This document shows positions 9,401-22,332 of a stretch of 43,853 nt of DNA, piece by piece; positions within the stretch are counted from its first letter, which is position 1, and each line of letters opens with the position of its first letter. A program made the position numbers and the translations under genes. The DNA comes from a virus. The DNA lies in the IMG/VR virus record IMGVR_UViG_3300037473_000089, positions 1 through 43,853 of that record; one strand, given 5' to 3'. The notes under the pieces are model-generated. The model saw only the letters and a list, made by a program, of their open reading frames with translations. It did not search any database and was not told the origin of the DNA.

Positions 9401-12085
9401 ATGGCTGCTTCAGCGCGCCAGGATCTGTTCCTGAACATCACAGGCAGCGCTGACGGCCTGAGCCGCATCGCCAAGGCGGCCAAGATCACGCTGGCCGATT
9501 TGGGCGTCGCGTCGGGTGACCTTCAGAAGACGATGGCTGATAATTTCCAGAAGCTGGGCGGCAGCGAACTGGAGGCCAACACCCGGACGATCGAGGCGTC
9601 GTTCCGCCGTACCTTTGCCAATATCCGGGCGTCTGCCGAGGCTTCGATCGGCAAACCCATCACAGCGGAATCGATCCTCTCCACCAATATTAGCGGCGCG
9701 CAGGCCAGCCTCGCTGCGGCAAATGGGCAGGCCGCCTCGCTCCGAGGGCTTGCCGATGCGATGGCCCGCATCATCGCAACAAATCCGGCCGCGACAGATG
9801 GCCAGCGTGCATTGGCCATCACGCTTGAAGGCAGTGCACTCGCGGCAAAGGAAAATGTCGTCGCGCTGGAGCAGCAGATTTCGACATTGCAGGCCCTCGC
9901 GGCCGAGTCCGGTATTGCCGTGAACGCCGGCGACCGGGTCGTGGCCAGCCACGGCCGCATGTCGTCGTCTGGTATGATCCTTCAGCACGTCGTGCGCTCG
10001 ACGTCGGACAGCTTTGCGGCGGGCCTGCCGCCCACCATGATTTTTGCTGAGCAGATCGGCCGGCTGGGCGAGGCCGCGGCGTTGGCAGGCCCGGAAGGAG
10101 GGCTAGGCGCGTTCGGTGCGTTCATGTCTGGACCGTGGGGCCTTGCCGTCACCTCTGCTATCAGCATCGCATCTGTCCTGGGCAAAACGCTGCTGGAGAG
10201 CGGCGACGCGGCGAAGGATAGCGCCAAGGCGCATGACGCACTGAAAGATGCGATGGATCGGCTGGCCGGCTCGGAAGCCGCGCTGAACCACCAGACGCGG
10301 CAGGGCATTATCGACGATATCAACTCGGCCGCAGCGACGCGCCAGCGAGAGATCGCCACGCGTGGCCTGCTGGAGGCGGAGCTCCAGCGCGAGAGGGCGC
10401 TCGCCGCAACGACCGCATCCGCGCCGACGTCAGGCCGGGCGCTTGACGAGAGCGCGCAGTATACACGGCGCGACACGAGCACTCTCGCCAATGACCGCAT
10501 TGCGGACCTCGACAAGCAGCTCGCCGACAATCAGGCCAAGATCACAGATGCGAACAAGAAGATCCTCGATGGCGCGACGAAGATCATTCAGCGCGATGTC
10601 GAGGCGGCGACAGATCCGCGCTCCGCGATCAATCAGCGGTTCCAGGATCAGTCGGACCGGCTCGATCGAGCGTTCCAGTCGGGCAAGCTGACCCCTAGCG
10701 ACTATCGCGCCCAATATACGGCACTCACGACGCAGCGCGACAGCGCGCTTGAGGCCCAGCGGCCCGGCCGACGCCCGCGTGCGGACCACACCTCCGAGCG
10801 CGAGGCGAACAAGGACCGCGCCTATCAGTCGCAACTTGATCAGGCGCAGGACGCCTATAGCAAGGCGCAGGCTGACCTAGCGGACACCGCGGAGGCCCGG
10901 CTCCAGGTGGAGCAGCAGGAGCTTTGGGCTGGCCTCCAGCAGAAGAAGCTCGAACTCGACGATCAGGTGAAGGCCGGCAAGCTGACGCAGGCGCAGGCCG
11001 ATCACTTGAAGGAAATCTACGAGGGCACCGAAGAGCTTCAGGAGATTAATGCCCTCCAGAAAGAGCGTTCCCGCATCGCCCGCGAGCAGTTGGAAAAAGA
11101 CCAGCTGTATCTGGACGGGCAAATCGCGATCCTCGAATTGCAGAAGGATTTCGCTGTCGGCTCACGTGCGCAGCGCGATCTGGAACTGAAGATCCTGGCT
11201 GATCAGGAGCAGAAAGAGCGGAACGACCTCCAGAATAAGATCGACACGTCCACCGATCCGCACGCGGTTGAGGACGCAAAAACCCGCCTTGCGCAAATCG
11301 ATGCCGAACACCCGTACAAGGTCGAGCAGGTCAACCGGCAGACCGCTTCGCCGCTGGAGGCCTACCGCCAGCAGCTGCGCCAGAACGTCGGCGACACGAA
11401 CGACGCGCTTCAGGGCGTCGCGGTCGACGGCCTTAAGGGTCTAGAAGACGGCCTCGTCGGCATCATCTCGGGGACCGAGAGCGTCAAGCAGGCCTTCAAA
11501 CAGATGGCGACCTCGATCATCGCGGACCTCGCGCGGATCGCCATCGAAAAGGCCATCGTAAATGCGCTTGGCTCCGGGTTCTTCGGCCTGAAGGATGGCG
11601 GCTCGGTCAGCGGCTTCGCGGACGGCGGCATCCCCGGCTATGCCAGCGGCGGCCATATCCATGGCCCCGGTACCGGGCGCTCGGACAGCATCCTCGCGAT
11701 GGTGGGCGGCCGAAAGCCGATCCGCGTCGCGAACGGCGAGTTCATTGTCAACGCGGCGTCGACCCGTCGCTATCTGCCGCTGATCCGCGCCATCAACGAC
11801 AACCGCCTGCCGGGTTTCGCGGACGGCGGCCTGCCAGGCGGAGAGGTGCCCAACATGCGGACGCTGAGCCGCGGCGACATGCAGGCACTGGCCCCCGCCA
11901 AGGGCGGTGACCAGTATGTCGACCTCCGAGGCGCGATCGTCGATTCCGCACTCTGGGACCGGGTCAACAACATCGCGGCTTATCACGCCAAGGGTGCCGA
12001 GATCCGAGCCACGGCCAATGGCGCGAAACTCGGTCAGCAGCAGGCTCGCGCTGCGTCCGGCCGTCGCCTACCCACGAGGACATAG
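9401..12085 (+). CDS. Tail tape measure protein
   Basis: 894 aa, Ala/Gln/Glu-rich and coiled-coil-like, with a hydrophobic central segment and C-terminal GFADGG repeats. Position follows the chaperone. Confidence 0.9.
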   Translation: MAASARQDLFLNITGSADGLSRIAKAAKITLADLGVASGDLQKTMADNFQKLGGSELEANTRTIEASFRRTFANIRASAEASIGKPITAESILSTNISGAQASLAAANGQAASLRGLADAMARIIATNPAATDGQRALAITLEGSALAAKENVVALEQQISTLQALAAESGIAVNAGDRVVASHGRMSSSGMILQHVVRSTSDSFAAGLPPTMIFAEQIGRLGEAAALAGPEGGLGAFGAFMSGPWGLAVTSAISIASVLGKTLLESGDAAKDSAKAHDALKDAMDRLAGSEAALNHQTRQGIIDDINSAAATRQREIATRGLLEAELQRERALAATTASAPTSGRALDESAQYTRRDTSTLANDRIADLDKQLADNQAKITDANKKILDGATKIIQRDVEAATDPRSAINQRFQDQSDRLDRAFQSGKLTPSDYRAQYTALTTQRDSALEAQRPGRRPRADHTSEREANKDRAYQSQLDQAQDAYSKAQADLADTAEARLQVEQQELWAGLQQKKLELDDQVKAGKLTQAQADHLKEIYEGTEELQEINALQKERSRIAREQLEKDQLYLDGQIAILELQKDFAVGSRAQRDLELKILADQEQKERNDLQNKIDTSTDPHAVEDAKTRLAQIDAEHPYKVEQVNRQTASPLEAYRQQLRQNVGDTNDALQGVAVDGLKGLEDGLVGIISGTESVKQAFKQMATSIIADLARIAIEKAIVNALGSGFFGLKDGGSVSGFADGGIPGYASGGHIHGPGTGRSDSILAMVGGRKPIRVANGEFIVNAASTRRYLPLIRAINDNRLPGFADGGLPGGEVPNMRTLSRGDMQALAPAKGGDQYVDLRGAIVDSALWDRVNNIAAYHAKGAEIRATANGAKLGQQQARAASGRRLPTRT

Positions 12086-12088
12086 CCC

Positions 12089-12682
12089 TTGTCAGTTCTG
12101 CTCCCCTCATCTCCGGGCTTCCGCTCGGGGAAACCCCGGCTCGTGGACGCTGGCGGCGTGCAGCGGCCGCCTCAGGGCAGCGTCGCTATTCGCGTCAACC
12201 GTATGGGCAATCACTTTGCGATCGACGTCACGCCCTCCACGGCGCGGGCCAGCACCGAGGGCCGCATTCTCGTGGCACGATGCATCCGGGCGCTCACCGA
12301 AGGCGCCATCTACGCCTTCCCGCAGGACCTGAAACCGGGCGATGCGGGTTCGCCAGTCGTCGACGGCGGCGGTCAACAGGGCCAAGCGCTCAATCTGCGC
12401 GGGTTCCGGGCTGGCTATCAGGTGCTTGAGGGCCAGTTCTTCTCGCTGATCGTCGGCGGCCGGCGCTACCTTCATTGCGCCATGGCCGACGTCACCGCGA
12501 CCGGCGGCGGCGATATGCTGCTGCCGTTTCGGCCGATGCTCCGCGTCATCCCCGGTGACGGTGCCGTCTGCGAGTTCGCCCAGCCCATGATCGAGGGCTT
12601 CCTCGGCGGGACCGACTTCGAGTGGCAGCTTCAGGCGGCTCCGTACCTGGACGCCCCTTTCACGATCGAGGAGTCGGCATGA
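12089..12682 (+). CDS. Distal tail protein candidate
   Basis: 197 aa with a TTG start 4 nt after the tape measure stop. The call rests on position; no firm family was recognised. Confidence 0.5.
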   Translation: MSVLLPSSPGFRSGKPRLVDAGGVQRPPQGSVAIRVNRMGNHFAIDVTPSTARASTEGRILVARCIRALTEGAIYAFPQDLKPGDAGSPVVDGGGQQGQALNLRGFRAGYQVLEGQFFSLIVGGRRYLHCAMADVTATGGGDMLLPFRPMLRVIPGDGAVCEFAQPMIEGFLGGTDFEWQLQAAPYLDAPFTIEESA

Positions 12683-13269
12683 CGCGCCTGACCCCTGCGC
12701 TCGACGCGGCATTTGCTGCCCAGACGCACACCCCCTTCGGTGCGCTTCGCATCGCGCTCCCGTCGTACACGCTGCGCCTCTTGCTCGGCGGCGGCACGGC
12801 CATCTTCGGCGGCGAAACCTATGTTTCGAACGACCCGACCTTCGGCGCGCTCCAGTCGATCGATGATCTGTCCGACGGCACGGGCGACACCGCCCCGTCG
12901 CTGAGCTTCACGCTTCTGACCGCGAGCGACGCGGCAGCGGCAGCAATCGCCTCCGCCCAGATGCAGGGCTCCGAGGTCAAGCTGTTCATCGGCGCCGTAG
13001 ACCCGGAAACGGGTCAGGTCATCGGGACGGACCTGCGCTTCATTGGCGAGCTGGATGTGCCGAAGCTGATCGCCGGCAAGGGCAGCCGAGTCATCCAGTA
13101 CGACTGCATCTCCGCGTGGGACGACTTCTTCTTCGACGATGACGGCGCGCGGCTGAACGACACCTTCCACCAGTATATCTTCCCGGGAGAGCGTGGCTTG
13201 AGCTTCGTTTCAGCGGTCGCAGACCAGATTTATTGGGGCCAGGAAAACCCGTCGGGGGTGAAGCGGTGA
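12679..13269 (+). CDS. Tail tip/hub protein candidate (gpL / GTA g13-like position)
   Basis: 196 aa. ATG 12679 overlaps the upstream stop. ...FGALRIALPSYTLRLLLGGGTAIFGGETYVS... is reminiscent of DUF2163-type proteins. Confidence 0.5.
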   Translation: MTRLTPALDAAFAAQTHTPFGALRIALPSYTLRLLLGGGTAIFGGETYVSNDPTFGALQSIDDLSDGTGDTAPSLSFTLLTASDAAAAAIASAQMQGSEVKLFIGAVDPETGQVIGTDLRFIGELDVPKLIAGKGSRVIQYDCISAWDDFFFDDDGARLNDTFHQYIFPGERGLSFVSAVADQIYWGQENPSGVKR

Positions 13270-13703
13270 ACCGCGATCCTTCGCAGCAGATGGTCGTGCG
13301 CGTCGCCGCCGCGCAGGCCACGCTCGACCGGTTCAAAGACCGTCCTTTCGCGTGGGGCAAATATGATTGCGCGCGACTGGCGGCATACCACGCCCGCAAG
13401 ATGGGCTATCGGCCCTCGCTCTCGAAAGCGGGGCCATACGCCAGCGCTGGCAGCGCTCGCGCCGCGCTCAAGCGCCTCGGCTTTTCCAGCATCATAGAGG
13501 CTGTCGACGGGATGGGGTTCGAGCGCATTCCGCCCGCAGCGGCGATGGTCGGCGATCTCGTCGCCATGCCCGCGGTGGATGCGCTTGGCGCGATTGCTGT
13601 CGTTCTCGGGAACGGCCGAGTGCTCGGCTACCATGCCGACGCCGTGGGCGCGGCCGTGCTGCAACCGAACGAGATCGACGTCGCCTGGAGGATCAAGCCA
13701 TGA
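13266..13703 (+). CDS. NlpC/P60-like Cys-His tail protein (gpK / GTA g14 position)
   Basis: 145 aa with a GTGA overlap. FAWGKYDCARLAAYH provides a candidate catalytic Cys, followed later by GDLV and ...GYH. Confidence 0.5.
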   Translation: MNRDPSQQMVVRVAAAQATLDRFKDRPFAWGKYDCARLAAYHARKMGYRPSLSKAGPYASAGSARAALKRLGFSSIIEAVDGMGFERIPPAAAMVGDLVAMPAVDALGAIAVVLGNGRVLGYHADAVGAAVLQPNEIDVAWRIKP

Positions 13704-16700
13704 GCAAGATCTTCGCGACCGCCGCGATGGTGGTGGGCGGCATCGCTCTCGCGGCAACCGGCGTCGGTGCTGTCGCGCTGGGCGGCCTTGCCGGCACGCT
13801 CACCGTGGCCGGCGTCTCCACCACGACTCTCTTCGCGGTGGCCGGTGGCCTCGAAGTCGGATCGATGCTGCTCACGAAGCAGCCCAAGGGCTCGGGAAGC
13901 GGCGAACAGTCTCAGTGGAAGGCCGACCCTCAGGCGGGCATCCCCTATGCTTTTGGTCGGACGCGGGTCGGCGGCAACATCGTTTATCGCCGCGCCTATG
14001 GCGACACGAACAAGTGGCAGGAGATCATCACTGTCCTCAGCGCTGGCGGGCCGGTGCAGTCGATTGACCAGCTTTATATCGACAACACCGCCTATTCGGT
14101 CGGCGCCGACACCACGGTCAATTACGACTATGGCTATGTCTTCGAACGTCGCCAGCTAGGCCATGTCCCCGAGGCAACGGCTCTTCAGGTCGGCCAAGGC
14201 GGCTACCCTCCCGGCTGGGATGCCACCTGCAAGCTGTCGGGCTATGCCGCGGCCGCGATGCAGTTCGTGTTCGACACGAAGGGCAAGACGACGCTCACCT
14301 CGACCCCACAGGTCGCTTGGCTCGGGCATTGGGTAAGCACCTATGACCCTCGCAAGGACAGCACCTATCCCGGCGGCGCCGGTTCGCACCGTTGGAATGA
14401 CGAGAGCACTTGGGAATGGTCGGAGAACCCTTTTCTCCACGCGCTGACGTGGCTCATCGGCCGACACGCGAACGGCAAGCTCATCATCGGCGGCGGCTTC
14501 TCGATCGACGCCATCATCGTGAGCCAGTTCGTCGAGGGCGCGAACATCGCCGACACGAACGGGTGGACGATCGGCGGCCAGACTGACACGACCGCCGGCC
14601 GGTACGACACCTTCAAGGCGATGCTTCAGGCAGGCTCCGCTGAGCCGCTGGAGTTGGGCGCGCAGATCGGCTGTCTGATCAACACGCCGCGCGTCAGCCT
14701 TGCGACAATCACCGTCGACGACGTGATGGGCGATGCGAGCGTCGCGGCGACCCAGACGAAGAAGAGCCGGATCAACACGATTGTGCCGACGTGGCGCGAC
14801 GAGGGCAGCAATTGGGAGATGGTGCCGGCGGCGCCGGTGGTGGTGCCGGAGCATGTCGCGTTCGACAAGAAGGGCCGCTCGAAGGCCGTCACCTACAGCT
14901 ATGTGCAGAACCTCAAGCAGGTCGCCACGCTCGCCCGGTACGATATCGAGAACTCCCGCGAGTTCGGCCCCATCAGCCTGCCGCTCAAGCTGCGCTGGAT
15001 GGGCTATCAGCCCGGCGATTGCGTCACCGCGAACCTGCCAGAGGTCGGGCTCGACAATCAGTTGATCCTGATCACCAACCGCTCGCTGTCGCCGTCGGAC
15101 GCGATTGTCACGATGACAGCCCGGTCCGAGACCCCTGCGAAGCATGCGTTCGCGCTCGGCCAGACTACAACTGCACCGCCCACAGCGAGCGTCGGTGGTC
15201 CTGTGCTCGTCCCGACGCCCGGCGCCAACTCGTGGGCGATCGTCGCCGACGCGATCTCGTCGAATGGGACCACGATCCCCGCGCTTGTCATCACCGGCGC
15301 GGCGGACAGCAGCGTCATCGATGCGATCGTCTTCGAATATCGGGTCGCGAACAGCGGGCTTGGAGCCGATGACGGCTGGCAAACATATGGCTGGGCGTCG
15401 CCCTCCGCTCAGGAGTGCGTCATCACCGGCCTTAAGGACGGCGCCGCCTACGAGGTGTCGATCTCTTATCGGAAGGGCTCGGCGTCGTCGCTGGCCCGCC
15501 TGATCCTCGGCCCCTCGACGGTGAGCAGCACGGCGATCCCGTGGAGCGGTATCGGTGGCGACGGCAAGCCCGAGGACGGCGCGACCCGCAACGTCTTCAC
15601 CGGCCCCTACGACCCTAACCGCATCTACAAATATGGCGACGAGGTCTCCGATCAGCTCGCCGTTTGGCGCTACATCAGCATCCTCTCGGAAAAGGGCAAT
15701 GCGCCCCCAGCGCTGCCGGCCGAGAGCAATGCGTTCTGGTCGCTCTTCGTCCAAGGCGCGTCGCAGGAGATCATCGATGCCGTCGCCGGCATGGTGTCGG
15801 ATCAGGTGCTGGCCCGCTCGGAAAAGCTGGCGCTGATCAACGATATCGCCGCGATCCAATCGGAGGAGCCGAAGCTCGTCGCGCGGGCGACAGGATTGGG
15901 GCTCAGCACTACCGGATATGTCGCCGCCTACAGCGCGCTGATGACTTTCCTCAGCGGCCTCTCGCCGACTTGGGACGACACTTCGCAAGACACCCCGCTC
16001 CCGGACAAGACGACGCTGACGGCGCGGGTCGAGGCGTATTTCTCGCAGCGTGACGCGCTCACCGGCACGATCAACGATCAGGCCGATCAGGAAATCGCCA
16101 TCACCTCCGAGGCGGCAGCGGCGGCCAAGGCGGCGGCGGATGCGGCCAACACACTGGCGGGTACCGCGAACGCGGCGGCCTCCCTTGGCGCGCAGATGGC
16201 GGCGGACATTGCCGATAACGGCAAGTTCTCCCCGGCGGAGAAGAAGCGCTGGGTCGAGCGCATCAACAGCTTGAACGGCACGGTCGCCAGCGAGATCGCG
16301 CAGGGCAACCAACTCGGGCTTCAGGCGCAGACCGGCGCCCTCCAGACAGCCTACAACAACCTGATCAGCTATCTGAACTCGGTCGGTTATTCGGACGTCG
16401 GCCACACCTCGTCTATCAACTCAGGCACCTTCAAGGCGAATGTCGCCGCTTTCGATAATGCGGAGACGAACCTCGCGGTCGCCGCGCAGGCCTATGCGCA
16501 GTCTATGTCGGTCATCACGACCAGCAACCTCATCGTGGACCCGCTCTTTCAGCGGCCTACGGACGCCGGATCGTGGCAAGGGCCGCCAGCATCGACCAGC
16601 GGCGGGCAAGATGACCGGCTCGGCCGCCGCGCCTACTTCAATGCTTCGAGCGGCGACGTCGCGTGGGCGACACCAACCTTTCAGTGCGTGGGCACCGATC

Positions 16701-17824
16701 GACTGGACATTAACTTCGACTGGTTCTGCTCATCCGGCGTCGCTGGCGTGAACGGAGGGACGTCCTTCGGTATCTGGGCGTCCGGCTTCGACAGCAACGG
16801 CAACGCCCTTTGGAACAACGCCGTCACCGTTCCCTTCTCCGGCACCAAGAACCAGTGGCTGAAACAGACGGGCTCGATCATCGTCGCCAACATGCCGAGC
16901 GGCGCGAACACGACGAAGGTGTTCCTCTACGTTCAGGCGCAGGGCCATTCCGGCGGCGCGGTCTACATCCGCAACCCGCGTGTCGTGAAGGCCGCTGCGG
17001 CCAACGCGCTCCTCGGCGCGAACGGGCGCGGCCTATCTTCGACGCTCAACTCGACGAACGGTGTCGTCGGCGTCCGAGCCCTCAATCTGAGCGGTTTCCA
17101 GCTCAGCTTCACGGACACCGGCGGCGGCGGCACGGTCAACGTCGGCGCCGCCACCTATGAGCTCGATACGGGGATCACGATCAACTATCCGAGCGGCTCG
17201 TTCCCCGGCGCCGCGTACAGCACCACCTATTTCGTGTGGCGCTATGATCCCAATCTGGACGGGGGCTCGGGCTATGGGATTTCGACGAACCTGAGCGACG
17301 TGAACTCGCCACAGAACGTCTATCTCGGATATCTCACTACGCCGTCGGCGGGCGGTACTGGCGGCGGCGGTGGCGGCTGGGGCTCGGGCAACTGCGTCGA
17401 CCCGGATATGTTCGTCGAGGTCGAGGGGCGTGGTCCGGTCCGCGCGGCCGAGATCGTCGCGGGCGATCGCATCCTCTGCCTGACCGAGGACCATGCCGGC
17501 TTCGAGTTCGTCGACGTCGAGGCGAACGTCCTGGACGAAAATTGGAAGGTGGAGCTCAAGACCGAGAGCGGCGTCCGCCTCCGCCTGTCGATCAACACCC
17601 CGATCCCTCGGCAGGACGGCGGCTACAACATCGCGGCTCACGCGCCCTATGCGGCCGTGCCGATCCGCGACGGCGACATGGCGGGGCCGGACTGGCAGCG
17701 CGTCTCGATGATGCCGCTGCACCGCGGCCCGGTAGCGCGCATCAGCTGCCACGAACGGGTCTACGCCGCCGGCAGCGAACCCGGCCGGTACATCCTCACC
17801 CACAACACCACCGTCAAACCCTGA
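13700..17824 (+). CDS. Central tail fibre / host-specificity protein (lambda J / GTA g15-like), 1374 aa
   Basis: ATGA overlap with the upstream gene. Gly/Ala-rich hydrophobic N-terminus, J-like GIPYAFGRTRVGGNIVY, an FN3-like segment (FEYRVANSG...GAAYEVSISYRKG), an Ala-rich coiled coil, a beta-rich distal domain and a poly-Gly linker. A C-terminal Hint-like module is listed as the next feature. Confidence 0.85.
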   Translation: MSKIFATAAMVVGGIALAATGVGAVALGGLAGTLTVAGVSTTTLFAVAGGLEVGSMLLTKQPKGSGSGEQSQWKADPQAGIPYAFGRTRVGGNIVYRRAYGDTNKWQEIITVLSAGGPVQSIDQLYIDNTAYSVGADTTVNYDYGYVFERRQLGHVPEATALQVGQGGYPPGWDATCKLSGYAAAAMQFVFDTKGKTTLTSTPQVAWLGHWVSTYDPRKDSTYPGGAGSHRWNDESTWEWSENPFLHALTWLIGRHANGKLIIGGGFSIDAIIVSQFVEGANIADTNGWTIGGQTDTTAGRYDTFKAMLQAGSAEPLELGAQIGCLINTPRVSLATITVDDVMGDASVAATQTKKSRINTIVPTWRDEGSNWEMVPAAPVVVPEHVAFDKKGRSKAVTYSYVQNLKQVATLARYDIENSREFGPISLPLKLRWMGYQPGDCVTANLPEVGLDNQLILITNRSLSPSDAIVTMTARSETPAKHAFALGQTTTAPPTASVGGPVLVPTPGANSWAIVADAISSNGTTIPALVITGAADSSVIDAIVFEYRVANSGLGADDGWQTYGWASPSAQECVITGLKDGAAYEVSISYRKGSASSLARLILGPSTVSSTAIPWSGIGGDGKPEDGATRNVFTGPYDPNRIYKYGDEVSDQLAVWRYISILSEKGNAPPALPAESNAFWSLFVQGASQEIIDAVAGMVSDQVLARSEKLALINDIAAIQSEEPKLVARATGLGLSTTGYVAAYSALMTFLSGLSPTWDDTSQDTPLPDKTTLTARVEAYFSQRDALTGTINDQADQEIAITSEAAAAAKAAADAANTLAGTANAAASLGAQMAADIADNGKFSPAEKKRWVERINSLNGTVASEIAQGNQLGLQAQTGALQTAYNNLISYLNSVGYSDVGHTSSINSGTFKANVAAFDNAETNLAVAAQAYAQSMSVITTSNLIVDPLFQRPTDAGSWQGPPASTSGGQDDRLGRRAYFNASSGDVAWATPTFQCVGTDRLDINFDWFCSSGVAGVNGGTSFGIWASGFDSNGNALWNNAVTVPFSGTKNQWLKQTGSIIVANMPSGANTTKVFLYVQAQGHSGGAVYIRNPRVVKAAAANALLGANGRGLSSTLNSTNGVVGVRALNLSGFQLSFTDTGGGGTVNVGAATYELDTGITINYPSGSFPGAAYSTTYFVWRYDPNLDGGSGYGISTNLSDVNSPQNVYLGYLTTPSAGGTGGGGGGWGSGNCVDPDMFVEVEGRGPVRAAEIVAGDRILCLTEDHAGFEFVDVEANVLDENWKVELKTESGVRLRLSINTPIPRQDGGYNIAAHAPYAAVPIRDGDMAGPDWQRVSMMPLHRGPVARISCHERVYAAGSEPGRYILTHNTTVKP
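17393..17806 (+). other. Hint / mini-intein-like (BIL-like) autoprocessing domain at the C-terminus of the tail protein
   Basis: 138 aa starting at Cys1232 just after ...GGGGGGWGSGN. N-terminal strand CVDPDMFVEVEGRGPVRAAEIVAGDRILCL. It ends ...GRYILTHN(1369) followed by Thr, and only 5 residues (TTVKP) remain before the stop. Confidence 0.6.
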
Positions 17825-18858: not shown

Positions 18859-21381
18859 ATGGCTTCGATCCTTGGGTTCCTGCTTGCCGGGACGACCTCC
18901 TATACCGTCCCGGCAGGCGTCACGGCGCTCAAGGTCGAATGCCTTGGAGCGGGTGGCAACGGCACGGCATCCGGCGGCACTGGCGGCGGCGGCGGAGCTT
19001 ATGCCGCCGTTCGCTATCTGCCCGTCGCCCCCGGTCAGGTCATCCCTTGTTCGATCGGCGCGGGCGGAAGTCAGGCCGATACCTGGTTCCAGGCGACTGG
19101 GACGGTCTTGGCGAAGGCTGGCGCCAACGGGGTCGGCACTACCGCCGCTCTCGGTGGCCAGGCCGCCGCCTGCGCAGGCGAGATCGTCAACAGCGGTGGC
19201 AACGGTGGCCCATATGTCAGCCAGTCCGGAGGCGGCGGCGGTGCTGGCGGGCCGAATGGTCCCGGCGGCAATGGCTCGTCCGGCACATCTCCCTGCGCGG
19301 GCGGCGGCGGCGGGGCCAACGGTGGTGGGAGCGCTGTTGCCGCGACCAGTTCGTCTGGTGGAACCGGCGGCACCGGTCCAACAGGGGCGGCGGGCGGTGC
19401 TGGTGCGCCTAGCGCGGCGGCGGCTGGTTCGCCGGGCGCCAATGGATCGGGCGGTGGCGGCGGCGCCGGCACAGCGAACACTTTCAGCGGCGGCGCTGGC
19501 TCGCACAATGGCGAGTGGGACTCCACCCACGGCTGCGGCTCTGGCGGCGGCGGCGCCAATTTCAGTGCCGCCTCGCCGGCTGTCGGCGGCGCTGGTGGTG
19601 GCTTCGGCGGCGGCGGCGGCAGCGGCCCGTCCGGCAGGGTTGGCGCAGGCGCTCCGGGCCTGATTGTCCTCTGGGATTTGTCGAGCGATCCCGTTCCGAG
19701 CCGTTATTTTGTCCGGCCGGGCGCCACCAGTTTCACTGTTCCGGCGAACGTCACGGCAATCAAAGTCGAGATCCTCGGCAGTGGCGGCGCCGGGCGCGCC
19801 AACACGACCACGTCTGGCGCGGGAGGCGGCGGCGGCGGCGCTGCGATAGGCGCGATCTTTGCCGTGACGCCAGGCGAGATGTTCAATGTCTCCGCACAGG
19901 CGGCCGGTGGACAGGCCCTCTCGACGTTTGCCGCGGCGTCCGGTGCGAAGCGATCGATGGCGGTCGATTATGGCCGCACCTCGCTCGGCACCGCGGGCGG
20001 CGTGGGCGGTAGTTTTGCCAACAATCGCATCATCGGGGGCCAGCTCCTCTACAGCTATTCCGGCGGTAACGGCGGCAGTGGATCGTCTCATGGTTCGGGC
20101 GGCGGTGGCGGTTCTGCCGGTCCGAAGGGCAACGGTGGCAACGGGGGCACCGGCAACACAACATTGTCGGCCGGCGGCGGCGGCGCGAACGGCGGCGGAG
20201 CTGGCACGAATGCCGCCTCCGGCGTCGGAGGCTCCACCGCTGGCGGCGACGGAGGCGCCGGCCCAGCCGGCACGCTTGGCGGCCTCGGCGCGACAACGAG
20301 CGCAGCGGCAGCGCCCGGCTCTAACGGCTCCGGCGGCGGCGGAGCGATTTCCGCAACCAATCTGACCGGCGGTGCTGGTTCTCACAACGCAGAATGGGAC
20401 ACCCTCTATGGGTGCGGTTCGGGCGGCGGCGGCGGCTATGGCACGCCATCCAACACCGGGGGCGCTGGCGGTCCGTATGGCGGCGGGGGCGGTGGCGGTG
20501 GCGCCGCGGCTGGCACGGGGGGCGCTGCGATTATCGTCATTACGGACGTCTCGGCCAACGCGTCCAATATCAAACAGGTGTTTCTGGAGCCGGGCACGAC
20601 GTCGTGGCAGGTGCCGCTGGCCGTCTCGTCGATCGATTCCGTTGAGTGCATTGGCTGCGGCGGCCGTGCGATCTTGGCGGCCGGTGGTGGCGGAGCTTAT
20701 TCCGCCGTCTTCAACCTTTCCGTCGTGCCCGGCTCCGTCCTTCCTGTTCAGGTGCCTGCCGGCGGCGGCGGCGTGCCGACTTGGTTTAGCGACCCGTCCA
20801 TCGTCCTAGCCGACTATGGACGAAACAGCGCTGGTGCAGGCGCTGCCGTTGGCGGCCTCGCGGCTAATGGTGTCGGTGCCGTAAAATACTCGGGTGGCAC
20901 GGCTGGCAGCTACAGCAGCAACGGTATGCCTGGCGGCGGTGGGTCGGCTGGCCCGAACGGCAATGGCGGCGCGGGCGGCGCAGGCTATACGGCAACCAGT
21001 GGGTCCGGCGGTGGCGGCGGTGGCGCCAACGGCGGTGGCGCCGGAACCGCAGGATCGACGACCTCCGGTGCCGGCGGCGCATCGCCGACCGGTGTAGCCG
21101 GCCCGGCCGGCGTGGCCGCGGGCATTCAGGGAATCAACTCGACAGGCGGCGCAGGTGGCGGCGGCGGTGGCCGTGGTAACGGTGCGGTTGCTGGCGGCGG
21201 CGGCAATGCGTCGCACAATGCCGAGTGGGATTCGACCCATGGCTGCGGATCGGGGGCGGGCGGACCCGGCACCCAAACAGGCGCAGTCCCCGATGGATCA
21301 TATCCCGCAGGCTATGGCGGCGGCGGTGCAGGAGCCGCTGGCAACGCGGCCGCAGGCCCCGGCCTGATCGTCATCACCTAC
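18859..21381 (+). repeat. Three tandem glycine-rich domain modules (18859-19674, 19675-20544, 20545-21381)
   Basis: Protein-level triplication. The conserved motif SHN-x-EWD-x3-GCGSG lies at 19501-19545, 20380-20424 and 21211-21255. The nucleotide sequences are diverged. Confidence 0.8.
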
Positions 21382-22332
21382 ACTGTGACGGGCTCGGTTG
21401 GCGCGGTGAACGTCACGCTCGACGACGCCACCACCAGTTCGTCGGGCCGGCTCCAGATCCGTGGACAGGCGGCCACCACGCTGGAAGATGCCACCCTTTC
21501 AGCCTCTGGGCGCGTGCGCATTGCCGGGCGTGTGAACGTCCAACTGGATGACGCGGTGGGCGCTGGAAGCGGCAGGCTCGGCATCAGGGGGCAGAGCACG
21601 GTCGTGCTCGACGATGCGATCCTCAACGCCACGGGGAAGCTCAGCATCAAGGCCGCCGCTAACATCCAGCTGGAGGATGCTGTCGGCGTCGCTCGCGGCG
21701 GCGCTCCCTCGCTTGAGGGAAGCCTCGCCGTCATCCTCGACGACGCCACGATGACCGCATCCGGGAAGCTCGGGATCAAGGCAGGTGCCGCGATCCAGCT
21801 CGAAGACGCCACGCTCGATGCTCACCTTTCCAGCGTCATCAAAGGTCAGGTCAACATTACACTCGAAGACGCGGAGCCCGCACCCATCATGCTCACCGGA
21901 CCCATCATTGCGACGGCAGATCAGACGATCGTCGTCCCGGCCGTCGCGGCCTCGACGCAGTCCGGCGCCGGGCTGCCGCAAGGCGCGCTGGCGTGGAACC
22001 AGCCGCTCGACCCCGCCGATCGCGGGCCGCGGGCCTTCGACTTCACGCCCCTGCTCAATGGCGCGAAAATCGCCGAGGTGCTGAAGATCACGATGTCGCC
22101 TTCGGGGGCGGCCGTGGGCCTCATGGTCGACGGCGATCCGGCCCGCCAGCCGATCATCGGCTCCGACGGCGAGAAGATGCAGATGTGGTTCCTCGTCGAT
22201 CCGGGGATGCAGGATCTCGACGTCTTCGCGAACGGCGGCGTGCAGGTCGGTGTCTCTGTGAAAATTCAGACCGATGCCTTTCCCGCGCAGGAATACGAGC
22301 GGACCGGCGTCCTTACCGTGAGGCAGCTCTGA
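18859..22332 (+). CDS. Tail fibre-like protein with three tandem glycine-rich domains, eight 21-aa repeats and a distinct C-terminal domain
   Basis: 1157 aa. Each ~275-290-aa module starts like YTVPAGVTALKVECLGAGGNG and ends like GLIVLW, IIVIT or LIVITY, the pattern of phage glycine-rich fibre domains. Confidence 0.8.
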   Translation: MASILGFLLAGTTSYTVPAGVTALKVECLGAGGNGTASGGTGGGGGAYAAVRYLPVAPGQVIPCSIGAGGSQADTWFQATGTVLAKAGANGVGTTAALGGQAAACAGEIVNSGGNGGPYVSQSGGGGGAGGPNGPGGNGSSGTSPCAGGGGGANGGGSAVAATSSSGGTGGTGPTGAAGGAGAPSAAAAGSPGANGSGGGGGAGTANTFSGGAGSHNGEWDSTHGCGSGGGGANFSAASPAVGGAGGGFGGGGGSGPSGRVGAGAPGLIVLWDLSSDPVPSRYFVRPGATSFTVPANVTAIKVEILGSGGAGRANTTTSGAGGGGGGAAIGAIFAVTPGEMFNVSAQAAGGQALSTFAAASGAKRSMAVDYGRTSLGTAGGVGGSFANNRIIGGQLLYSYSGGNGGSGSSHGSGGGGGSAGPKGNGGNGGTGNTTLSAGGGGANGGGAGTNAASGVGGSTAGGDGGAGPAGTLGGLGATTSAAAAPGSNGSGGGGAISATNLTGGAGSHNAEWDTLYGCGSGGGGGYGTPSNTGGAGGPYGGGGGGGGAAAGTGGAAIIVITDVSANASNIKQVFLEPGTTSWQVPLAVSSIDSVECIGCGGRAILAAGGGGAYSAVFNLSVVPGSVLPVQVPAGGGGVPTWFSDPSIVLADYGRNSAGAGAAVGGLAANGVGAVKYSGGTAGSYSSNGMPGGGGSAGPNGNGGAGGAGYTATSGSGGGGGGANGGGAGTAGSTTSGAGGASPTGVAGPAGVAAGIQGINSTGGAGGGGGGRGNGAVAGGGGNASHNAEWDSTHGCGSGAGGPGTQTGAVPDGSYPAGYGGGGAGAAGNAAAGPGLIVITYTVTGSVGAVNVTLDDATTSSSGRLQIRGQAATTLEDATLSASGRVRIAGRVNVQLDDAVGAGSGRLGIRGQSTVVLDDAILNATGKLSIKAAANIQLEDAVGVARGGAPSLEGSLAVILDDATMTASGKLGIKAGAAIQLEDATLDAHLSSVIKGQVNITLEDAEPAPIMLTGPIIATADQTIVVPAVAASTQSGAGLPQGALAWNQPLDPADRGPRAFDFTPLLNGAKIAEVLKITMSPSGAAVGLMVDGDPARQPIIGSDGEKMQMWFLVDPGMQDLDVFANGGVQVGVSVKIQTDAFPAQEYERTGVLTVRQL
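21406..21912 (+). repeat. Eight tandem ~63-nt (21-aa) coding repeats
   Basis: Units VNVTLDDATTSSSGRLQIRGQ / AATTLEDATLSASGRVRIAGR / VNVQLDDAVGAGSGRLGIRGQ / STVVLDDAILNATGKLSIKAA / ... Consensus x3-(L)-(D/E)-D-A-x5-G-(R/K)-L-x-I-x-G. Confidence 0.8.

Follow-up and report, generated by a model that had tools for sequence, protein, structure and literature searches.

A predicted Hint-fold, intein-like module at the extreme C-terminus of a siphovirus tail-tip protein is a candidate self-removing domain

Type-A bacterial intein-like (BIL) domains were reportedly described by Amitai in 2003 and by Dassa in 2004. Cleavage at one or other of the two junctions, with occasional ligation, is expected of such domains (PMC4031507), and the BIL2 domain of Tetrahymena BUBL is reported to resolve its thioester with the epsilon-amine of a lysine, giving an isopeptide bond with the C-terminus (PMC8616854). 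The window analysed here, the whole 43,853-nucleotide stretch of IMG/VR virus record IMGVR_UViG_3300037473_000089, encodes a 1374-residue tail protein whose last 143 residues are, with moderate confidence, a competent self-removing Hint domain of a type-A-BIL-like, unannotated family, lying inside a Gly-rich tail.

The gene for this protein (13700..17824, plus strand, ATG start at 13700) was defined from its open reading frame and translation, and the identical gene is called on the Logan assembly contig. It occupies the J or 'megatron' position of a large tail-tip protein, downstream of genes for the TMP (9401-12085), a distal tail protein (Dit, 12089-12682), a further tail protein (12679-13269) and, immediately before it, an NlpC/P60-like DUF6950 protein (13266-13703). 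This gene order, with no sheath, agrees with the earlier note, which had placed the protein at the central, host-specificity position of a siphovirus tail. An N-terminal tail-fibre/hub-attachment region of approximately 590 residues (residues 5-593; 13712..15478, plus strand) matches phrog_5616, 'tail fiber protein' (E 6.7e-89), and is common to about 15 other module-bearing proteins. Pfam gave no match anywhere in the 1374-residue protein, including to the peptidase S74 chaperone domain (PF13884), and no second copy of the Hint module was found elsewhere in the window.

A conserved domain of approximately 115 residues (residues 1100-1215; 16997..17344), ending ...NVYLGYLTTP, stands directly before a Gly-rich linker, SAGGTGGGGGGWGSGN, which by direct reading forms the end of the N-extein (residues 1216-1231; 17345..17392). 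The module, to which AlphaFold2 (AF2) and Foldseek give a Hint fold, extends from Cys1232 to Asn1369 (138 residues, 15.2 kDa; 17393..17806) and reads CVDPDMFVEVEGRGPVRAAEIVAGDRILCL...SINTP...GRYILTHN, followed by TTVKP and the stop codon at 17822-17824. The predicted scissile bond lies between Asn1231 and Cys1232, and Cys1232 (17393..17395, block A) is the predicted position-1 nucleophile on the basis of family conservation. The block B equivalent is S-I-N-T-P (Ser1297...Thr1300-Pro1301; 17588..17602), in which Thr1300 stands in place of the canonical histidine; P-D-W-Q (17687..17698), the local form of the F-R-W-E motif of the family, opens the C-terminal half of the fold. Blocks F/G, assigned by conservation, read Y-A-A-G ... 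G-R-Y-I-L-T-H-N (17762..17806) and end in His1368-Asn1369, with the T1367-H1368-N1369 codons at 17798-17806. The C-terminal pentapeptide TTVKP (17807..17821), the 'C-extein', ends in proline and carries Lys1373 at 17816-17818; all of these features are on the plus strand. The earlier note had given the same protein length, Gly-rich linker, 138-residue Cys1232 to His1368-Asn1369 unit, TTVKP tail and stop, all of them exactly, and was also right that no block-B TxxH is obvious, since profile alignment sets the threonine of SINTP at the histidine position. Composition was considered as a sign of foreign insertion and rejected, the GC content being 0.685 in the module and 0.648 in the remainder of the gene, and the GC3 0.90 and 0.84, respectively.

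The same note had expected matches to Hint_2 and other Pfam models, and at significance there were none: the C-terminal pieces of 143 and 174 residues matched no Pfam or NCBIfam model at E<=1. Searches of the C-terminal pieces against PHROGs, phmmer against PDB sequences and a word-indexed homologue search with the single sequence returned nothing useful, and an AlphaFold model from the single sequence was uninformative (pLDDT 33.5). An AF2 model built with a 65-sequence family alignment reached a pLDDT of 91.5 and a pTM of 0.86. When this model was compared with the PDB by Foldseek, all of the top 50 matches were inteins, Hedgehog Hint domains or BIL domains. The closest was the NpuDnaB mini-intein 4o1r (E 7e-9, TM 0.80/0.87, rmsd 2.0 Å), and the others included Hedgehog (1at0 and 6tyy, TM 0.74), the C. 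thermocellum BIL (0.67/0.75), Tetrahymena BIL2 (0.64-0.69) and 6fre. Absence of a Hint fold had been named beforehand as the outcome that would count against the proposal; structure prediction and Foldseek both give the Hint fold, and the proposal of an intein-like module at the extreme C-terminus that is not a conventional intein stands.

Sequence profiles pointed in the same direction. A profile of the family gave only three matches among PDB sequences at E<=10, all of them inteins with block B in register, and its alignments to NpuDnaB (4o1r) and Pho RadA (2lqm) set serine over the block-B threonine and threonine over the block-B histidine. Among the 65 members, four matched the intein-containing model NF038136 (best E 3.2e-6) and three matched intein_Nterm (best E 0.0046) in NCBIfam. 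Pfam matches to these members were all sub-threshold, with Hint (five members) and Hint_2 (three) the most recurrent; PT-HINT matched a separate canonical Hint domain in one homologue, P0054, not the module. An hhalign comparison of the family profile with an approximate sequence of the Ssp DnaB mini-intein, which served purely to check consistency, aligned the block-F region only, at 1.8% probability. Together, the predicted structure and its PDB matches support membership of the module in the Hint (Hedgehog/intein) superfamily, whose horseshoe-shaped, all-beta fold brings the two termini together at the active site.

A phmmer search that covered all 1.84 billion protein cluster representatives returned 237 clusters at E<=1e-3, of which 63 reached E<=1e-10; a chance motif was rejected on the ground that 237 clusters carry the module of approximately 135 residues. 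The unit lies about 3-15 residues from the C-terminus in approximately 145 of the 148 true homologues listed, from which P0017, a repeat-protein false positive, was left out, and the tail after the module is 3-9 residues long in most members. A degenerate DNA pattern for Y-A-A-G...I-x-T-H-N was also run against viral contigs and genomes. Its matches were true members in 35 of 35 cases in the viral contigs and in 16 of 26 in the genomes, with the module terminal in nearly all. Carriers were found among siphophages and prophages of Alpha- and Gammaproteobacteria, jumbo Xanthomonas phages and a T4-like Stenotrophomonas phage. Cultured carriers include Xanthomonas phages PhiXhv-15 and XacN1 and, with the protein 'VlrC', Stenotrophomonas phage DLP_6. 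Across hosts and phage morphotypes the module stays conserved, in contrast to the variable upstream parts, and a low-complexity, flexible linker precedes it throughout the family (Gly 56-70% at positions -9 to -3; poly-Pro in about 9% of the family). No partner gene was conserved beside the module across the gene contexts compared.

ORF231 of phage XacN1 bears the module, and the virion proteome paper on XacN1 gives no result for this protein. Some small Tat-signal proteins consist of little more than linker and module, which indicates that the domain can form the main body of a protein and not only a disposable appendage. In Xanthomonas phage PhiXhv-15, the module-bearing gene adjoins a degenerate paralogue that stands alone and has none of Cys1, Thr-Pro and His-Asn; the fold can thus persist without the catalytic residues. 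The family is previously unannotated, with no Pfam, PHROG or NCBIfam model covering these hundreds of 'hypothetical' C-terminal regions. The earlier note knew of no such architecture in siphovirus central fibre proteins, and no account of it was found in the literature searched on Hint, BIL or intein-like domains with tail fibres, receptor-binding proteins, gene transfer agents or intramolecular chaperones.

Position 1 of the module is Cys in 82% of the family and Ser in 18%, with nothing else, and is followed by Val in 91%. In block B, Thr (96%) and Pro (99%) are kept across the family. The F-R-W-E motif (Trp 93%, Glu 84%) aligns with the I-Y-W-D of DnaB mini-inteins, and blocks F/G retain Tyr (91%), Ala (80%), Ala (99%), Gly (96%), Ile (88%) and Thr (89%). 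Of the 148 true homologues listed, 146 have His-Asn as the end of the module; of the exceptions, one ends in HHD, and P0127 has a junction that fell outside the search window but reads THN. The copy studied here keeps all the near-invariant residues of the family except Glu102, which is Gln. Neither a block-F Asp nor a block-B His is conserved in the family. A +1 threonine had been put forward as a hallmark, and this did not hold: the residue is Pro in 34%, then Ala, Ile, Val or Leu, with Ser or Thr in only about 8% and Cys in none (0%). The +1 Thr of the window is therefore incidental, because the family usually has one of these other residues there.

The occurrence of only Cys or Ser at position 1, together with a boundary Thr-His-Asn in nearly all members, argues for a catalytic signature under selection, and the domain probably cuts itself off during tail maturation. 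Cys1232 would first attack the Asn1231-Cys1232 bond in an N-to-S acyl shift, giving a thioester. Asn1369, with the help of His1368, would then cyclise and break the bond to the TTVKP tail, and the thioester would be resolved mainly by hydrolysis and possibly by an amine. Loss of the 15-kDa domain would leave a mature tail protein of approximately 128 kDa ending in the Gly-rich tail. As the block-B histidine is missing, activation of the first step must depend on other groups, for which the invariant Thr1300-Pro1301 and the conserved Lys1373 of the tail are candidates. This histidine is dispensable in precedents, namely Tko CDC21-1, with a lysine, and Ssp DnaB M86, by extein compensation (PMC7765530). 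Since the block-B His and block-F Asp are the usual drivers of the first step and are not conserved here, the domain could be slow or inactive. Proline, the commonest +1 residue, is an unusual leaving group for Asn cyclisation, a point against the scheme. By analogy, the likely role would be that of a transient, self-removing C-terminal module that helps folding or assembly or caps the fibre tip.

The earlier note had favoured cleavage over splicing; the fate of the flanking peptides could also differ from simple cleavage. The upstream domain of approximately 115 residues, for which no Pfam, PDB-sequence or cultured-phage match was found, is common to about 40 of 149 module-bearing homologues and is also carried by at least 150 short phage proteins that have no Hint module. 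In these Hint-less homologues it is followed by a Gly-rich linker that includes Trp and by a peptide of 3-5 residues ending in Pro, as in ...GGWGGGGGGGG-SQIP, so that their ends look like the uninterrupted form of "...GGGGGGWGSGN-[Hint]-TTVKP". Splicing or ligation would excise the Hint domain and join the Gly-rich N-extein to the short tail, either through the alpha-amine freed by Asn cyclisation, as in type-A BIL domains, or through an isopeptide with the epsilon-amine of Lys1373, as in Tetrahymena BIL2. The product would end ...GSGN-TTVKP, like the uninterrupted ...GGGG-SQIP tails. The Hint-bearing tails are of equal length to the Hint-less ones and end in Pro in 64% (with a penultimate Lys in about 84%). 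Of 193 members, 88% have a lysine at +2 to +6 past His-Asn. This lysine tracks the junction also in members whose chain continues, and it is missing from the Hint-less tails. Precedents are the splicing of type-A BIL domains that have no +1 nucleophile (PMC4031507) and the lysine isopeptide of BIL2 (PMC8616854). However, cleavage products of type-A BIL domains outweigh the spliced ones (PMC4031507), a +1 residue that is mostly Pro is a poor nucleophile for aminolysis, and the spacing from Asn to Lys is variable, ranging from +1 to +8. The tails of the Ser-type subfamily do not end in Pro and many members have no upstream domain, so the vacant-site argument applies to only part of the family. 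Ligation in place of simple cleavage is, on this evidence, unlikely.

A more specific role for the lysine is quite unlikely: either Lys1373 would attack the Gly-tail thioester in a Lys-directed isopeptide splicing or ligation, or the lysine would substitute for the block-B histidine as activator. If it attacked, the Hint domain would be excised and the poly-Gly C-terminus joined to the Pro-terminated peptide, or in trans to a lysine of another protein.

A retained, non-catalytic Hint-fold domain, forming a distal fibre knob on the virion that might bind a receptor or serve as a structural cap, is fairly improbable. The missing block-B His and block-F Asp, the degenerate PhiXhv-15 paralogue and the Tat-signal proteins that are almost entirely module would suit such a knob. 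A position 1 restricted to Cys or Ser and a boundary His-Asn are, however, predicted by nucleophile and cyclisation roles and not by a binding surface. A receptor-binding tip would moreover be expected to be hypervariable, whereas it is the module that is conserved and the upstream parts that vary, and a low-complexity linker always tethers the module.

In a Hedgehog-like transfer, an external nucleophile (a lipid, a sugar, a cell-wall amine, or a virion or host lysine) would resolve the thioester and so tether or modify the fibre tip. The Cys1 thioester chemistry would be shared with Hedgehog, itself a structural match, BIL2 conjugates its N-extein to other proteins (PMC8616854), and a long flexible Gly tail would expose the activated end. 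With no adduct-recognition region, such as the sterol-recognition region of Hedgehog, in the 3-9 residues after the Hint domain and no conserved partner gene beside the module, transfer of this kind is very unlikely. The Hint fold, Cys1, His-Asn and, in the window protein alone, the +1 Thr would correspond to a mobile mini-intein of the conventional kind, set within a host protein. This reading is in effect refuted, as about 92% of the family have no Cys, Ser or Thr at +1; against it stand also the 3-9-residue C-extein, the missing homing endonuclease and block-B His, and a site in the low-complexity tail of highly variable proteins in place of a conserved one.

Self-removal of the C-terminal domain is thus the preferred reading. 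If the module does cleave itself, many phage tail and central fibres would mature through Hint chemistry, a second and unrelated solution beside the S74 intramolecular chaperones. The true C-terminus of the carrier proteins, and hence the receptor-binding tip, would be annotated and modelled differently, and hundreds of 'hypothetical' C-terminal regions would gain a name. The family would also show, as a natural experiment, how Hint catalysis proceeds without the block-B His and with a conserved downstream Lys. Endonuclease-free C-terminal domains of approximately 135 residues that remove themselves would be attractive in practice as tags for purification or ligation; if Lys-directed ligation were true, the module would be a phage counterpart of the ATP-independent conjugation of BIL2 and a natural, very compact self-excising ligation tag.

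Compared with known systems, the module shares with canonical class 1 inteins the position-1 Cys or Ser and the C-terminal His-Asn, and lacks the block-B Thr-x-x-His, a conserved +1 nucleophile and a conserved host-protein site with a functional C-extein. It resembles the DnaB-type mini-inteins (NpuDnaB 4O1R, Ssp DnaB 1MI8) in its collinear blocks A, B, F and G and its size of approximately 135-140 residues with no endonuclease, but differs in having no conserved host site, no family-wide +1 nucleophile, no block-B His, no block-F Asp and essentially no C-extein. The Hedgehog Hog domain (1AT0), also a C-terminal Hint domain, cuts itself loose from the N-terminal cargo by way of a Cys1 thioester formed at a junction of the Gly-Cys type. 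In contrast to the phage module, it has a block-B Thr-x-x-His, no terminal His-Asn and a sterol-recognition region for cholesterol transfer; the phage module of the window has a terminal His-Asn and only 5 residues after the Hint domain. With the peptidase S74 chaperones of endosialidase K1F and T5 pb1 the likeness would be one of function, that of a C-terminal, self-cleaving, disposable module of a fibre or spike (PMC7824862), whereas the fold and chemistry of S74, with its Ser-Lys dyad, are unrelated. Tetrahymena BUBL BIL2 (6Y75/6TMM) has a Hint domain and an N-extein ending in Gly, and the lysine conserved in the phage C-flank, for which we hypothesise a role by analogy, recalls its chemistry; however, BIL2 keeps a catalytic His69 and sits between folded ubiquitin-like domains, whereas the phage C-flank is a 5-residue peptide.

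The likeness to type-A BIL domains such as that of C. thermocellum (PDB 2LWY) extends to the Hint fold, the Cys or Ser nucleophile, the His-Asn, the lack of a +1 nucleophile and the hosts, which are variable and often surface or secreted proteins, not conserved sites. These features include the N-terminal nucleophile, His-Asn, absent +1 nucleophile and variable proteins by which the type is defined (PMC4031507, PMC7765530). The sequence motif of the type is not matched, the block-B His being absent and the phage module giving no significant HMM match to Hint-family Pfam models, including PT-HINT, the nearest Pfam proxy. The phage module differs from type-A BIL domains in its invariant Thr-Pro in place of the block-B His, in its lysine 2-6 residues past the Asn, and in being nearly always the last domain, in phage tail proteins.

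The 1374-aa tail protein is encoded on the plus strand at 13700-17824, and the same gene is called in a matching public assembly (Logan SRR12692786, 43.8-kb contig). Re-translation of its C-terminus gave ...NVYLGYLTTP-SAGGTGGGGGGWGSGN-C(1232)VDPDMFVEVEGRGPVRAAEIVAGDRILCL...SINTP...PDWQ...YAAGSEPGRYILTHN(1369)-TTVKP-stop. Cys1232 lies at 17393-17395, the block-B equivalent SINTP at 17588-17602, the THN that closes the module at 17798-17806, the C-terminal pentapeptide TTVKP at 17807-17821 and the stop codon at 17822-17824, all on the plus strand. The earlier note, which proposed a Hint-like (Hedgehog/intein fold) autoprocessing module at this extreme C-terminus, had described the sequence exactly.

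Upstream, the gene order runs from a ClpP-like prohead protease through an HK97-type capsid protein, connector proteins, Tail_completion_gp17, a Phage_tail_2 major tail protein and a tail assembly chaperone to the tape measure protein (9401-12085), the distal tail protein (12089-12682), a further tail protein (12679-13269) and, directly before the 1374-aa protein, an NlpC/P60-like DUF6950 protein (13266-13703). A sheath gene is absent, which makes the virus a siphovirus, with its tail-tip genes in an HK97/GTA-like order. By position, the 1374-aa protein corresponds to the large central (host-specificity) protein; over its first ~590 residues it matches phrog_5616 'tail fiber protein' (E 6.7e-89). 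Its N-terminus is a hydrophobic stretch of ~55 residues rich in Gly, Ala and Val (MSKIFATAAMVVGGIALAATGVGAVALGGLAGTLTVAGV...; 13700-13870), similar to transmembrane or glycine-zipper segments. In the tape measure protein, an embedded cell-wall hydrolase region is suggested by a match of residues 695-834 to endolysin phrog_971 (E 5e-20). Downstream, a second very large protein of 1157 aa (18859-22332), whose N-terminus weakly matches Gly_rich_2 / phrog_4474, is without a Hint module; lysozyme-like and GDSL-lipase-like genes come after it.

Searches of Pfam, NCBIfam and PDB sequences with the C-terminal piece of the tail protein alone returned no match even at E<=1 to 10, and the Pfam matches anticipated in the earlier note (Hint_2 and others) did not appear. 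A word-indexed search with this piece retrieved no homologue, and AlphaFold prediction of the module from the single sequence was uninformative (pLDDT 33.5). An exhaustive phmmer search of 1.84 billion representative proteins identified 237 clusters at E<=1e-3 and 63 at E<=1e-10; one candidate, the repeat protein P0017, was rejected as a false positive. Using a 65-sequence family alignment, AlphaFold2 gave a model with pLDDT 91.5 and pTM 0.86. All 50 Foldseek matches to the PDB at E<=1e-3 were Hint-fold proteins, including the NpuDnaB mini-intein 4o1r (E 7e-9, TM 0.80/0.87, rmsd 2.0), Hedgehog (6tyy and 1at0, TM 0.74), Ssp DnaB, gp41-1, NrdJ-1, class 3 inteins, and the bacterial intein-like (BIL) domains of C. 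thermocellum (2lwy) and Tetrahymena (BIL2, 6y75/6tmm); the second-best match was 6fre, an H73A structure. In a viral structure library the best matches were uncharacterised phage proteins that carry this module too; terminases and polymerases containing inteins came next. The module has a Hint fold and represents a large new family with a terminal architecture behind a flexible linker.

At E<=10 the family profile matched three PDB sequences and no others, all of them inteins (TvoVMA, NpuDnaB and Pho RadA). In the NpuDnaB and Pho RadA alignments the block-B Thr and the block-B His are paired with family residues Ser66 and Thr69, respectively. When the 65 members were scanned singly against Pfam, the most frequent matches were Hint (5/65) and Hint_2 (3/65), both below threshold; four members matched an intein-containing NCBIfam model (best E 3.2e-6) and three matched intein_Nterm (best 0.0046). 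Together these matches make the family a divergent and uncurated Hint-superfamily branch.

Family statistics were taken from ~147 sequences among the matches listed. Position 1 is Cys (82%) or Ser (18%) and nothing else, position 2 is Val in 91%, and the distance from Cys/Ser to Asn is 131-147 aa (mode 134-137). The ten preceding residues are 56-70% Gly, with poly-Pro instead in ~9% of members. Near-invariant residues are A18, G24-D25, L30, G60, L63, S66, T69-P70 and G76 in the N-terminal half, and W101-E102, G110, V114, I117, Y124-A-A-G127, I134 and T136-H137-N138 in the C-terminal half. In most members 3-9 residues follow His-Asn; the first of these (+1) is Pro (34%), Ala, Ile, Val or Leu, Ser/Thr make up only ~8%, and Cys is never seen there. 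In ~84% the chain has Lys as its penultimate residue, and in 64% it ends in Pro.

Module-bearing proteins span ~120 to 3163 aa, and the module is the last domain in nearly all of them; no precomputed Pfam domain was present on any obtained from the indexed search. The cultured carriers are the Xanthomonas jumbo phages PhiXhv-12/15/16, Ep026, XacN1 (ORF231), LucasX and RTH11, Erwinia phage Ep032, and the T4-like Stenotrophomonas phage DLP_6 (an 1824-aa 'VlrC' fibre-like protein), all annotated as hypothetical or under names without relation to Hint. Directly downstream of the module-bearing gene of PhiXhv-15 lies a 139-aa stand-alone degenerate Hint-like paralogue (XYR93252.1, L001:4423-4842; family HMM E 6e-12) without Cys1, Thr-Pro or His-Asn. 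Further members were sought with a degenerate DNA pattern encoding Y-A-A-G...I-x-T-H-N: all 35 viral contigs retrieved, some of 244-342 kb, held true members, as did 16 of 26 genome matches, from Sphingomonas, Allosphingosinicella, Ahrensia, Rhodanobacter and Microbulbifer variabilis. M. variabilis ATCC 700307 (loci L038, L043, L046, L051) has at least 4-5 copies in one genome. These cap proteins of 505 to 1871 aa with a common junction, '...TTPSNGGGTTVPRDPW|CVAAGSWL', the L038 copy being truncated, and look like a polymorphic family.

The module occurs beyond phage tails. In the 925-aa metagenomic protein P0039, a type IV pilin-like methylation motif at the N-terminus (PF07963, E 2e-5) is combined with two module copies in tandem (residues 658-782 and 788-924). 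In Allosphingosinicella and alphaproteobacterial MAGs (L050:6249-6881; also L041 and L055), ~210-aa proteins with a Tat-like signal (RREALARIGRFG...AVA) have a short Pro/Gly linker, a module starting 'CC' and almost no N-extein; the one neighbourhood scanned, L050, is chromosomal and non-phage (AI-2E transporter, AT3-SGNH acyltransferase, NTP_transf_5). Two different Hints stand in tandem in P0054 and L026, where a canonical-looking Hint (PT-HINT/Intein_splicing, sub-threshold) ending ...AHTYIAEGIISHN is followed ~7 residues later by a Ser-type module. L027 (IMGVR_UViG_3300007216_000021) has a Ser-type module at the end of each of two adjacent reading frames, with a long poly-Pro/poly-Gly stretch after the first module; the pair may represent consecutive fibre genes or a single frameshifted gene.

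Directly upstream of the linker lies a conserved ~115-aa domain (residues 1100-1215; 16997-17344, plus strand; alignment A2, P0175-P0294), with the motif ...YPSGS..G..Y.T.YY.WR.DP...GG..YG.STN...(V)YLGY.TTP. It had no Pfam, PDB-sequence or cultured-phage match. The domain is common to ~40 of 149 module-bearing proteins and is also found in at least 150 short (170-217 aa) phage proteins; among 120 of these retrieved, all but one were without Hint. Many Hint-less homologues finish '...YYLGKVTTPADGGGGTSGGWGGGGGGGG-SQIP', and the rest have an Ala/Pro/Gly-rich tail with a hydrophobic-Pro end; one example ends ...GGWGGGGGGGGSQIP. Compared with '...VYLGYLTTPSAGGTGGGGGGWGSGN-[Hint]-TTVKP' in the window, the Hint-less Gly-rich tail is the same, including an embedded Trp, and closes with a 3-5-aa peptide whose last residue is Pro. 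Judged by sequence, the Hint-less homologues look like uninterrupted ('vacant-site') versions of the window tail, and the Hint therefore appears to have been inserted into a pre-existing flexible C-terminal tail. The neighbourhoods of two Hint-less genes were examined: both genes are on podovirus-like contigs, and each follows closely on a P22 gp10-like 'Phage_stabilise' gene.

The family has lost the block-B His and has a conserved Lys past the C-junction: of 193 members, 189 have a Lys no more than 10 residues after His-Asn, and in 88% it lies at +2 to +6 (peak +4/+5). This spacing is kept in the few chains that continue (IIKGQ..., ASNIKYGD..., IDIGKGEPPP...), whereas the matching place in Hint-less tails is taken by Ile, Leu, Trp or Glu. 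Because it is tied to the junction and missing from Hint-less tails, the Lys is part of the module and not of the mature tail. One possible role is activation of the N-junction, with the Lys standing in for the lost His.

The boundary residues, Cys/Ser1 (N-S/N-O acyl shift) and His-Asn (Asn cyclisation), are under selection. We propose that a (thio)ester would form at Asn1231|Cys1232 and that Asn1369 would cyclise. Removal of the module would leave a mature protein of ~128.3 kDa and a 15.2-kDa Hint (computed masses), giving the module a putative transient role in assembly or maturation, for which the S74 intramolecular chaperones may be a functional analogue. Plain cleavage is the favoured outcome by analogy, since cleavage dominates in type-A BILs; these BILs also splice sometimes, in which case thioester formation and Asn cyclisation lead on to aminolysis by the freed alpha-amine (PMC4031507; PMC7765530), and ligation of the short tail after module excision is the alternative. 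A retained, non-catalytic domain is less likely, as the conservation pattern at the module boundaries speaks against it.

A canonical intein is effectively ruled out, since the family lacks a +1 nucleophile, a conserved insertion site and a block-B His. Neither Pfam nor PHROGs nor NCBIfam has an entry for the family, and in the searchable full-text literature, which is not exhaustive, no description was found of the family, its catalytic signature or its systematic placement ending phage tail proteins; Hint domains, BILs in variable proteins and S74 self-cleaving C-terminal modules on phage fibres are each known singly. Activity without a block-B His has precedents in Tko CDC21-1, which relies on Lys, and in extein compensation in Ssp DnaB M86 (PMC7765530). 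In the Tetrahymena BIL2 domain, an isopeptide between a Lys epsilon-NH2 and the C-terminus has been reported (PMC8616854); by analogy, the downstream Lys of the module family could likewise be the nucleophile that resolves the thioester. Type-A BILs are Hint domains with an N-terminal nucleophile, a C-terminal His-Asn and no +1 nucleophile, sited in variable proteins (PMC4031507; PMC7765530), and the module family shares all of these features. Unlike described BILs, however, it has an invariant Thr-Pro where the block-B His stands, lies nearly always at the extreme C-terminus, has a conserved Lys just past the C-junction and is carried on phage tail proteins.
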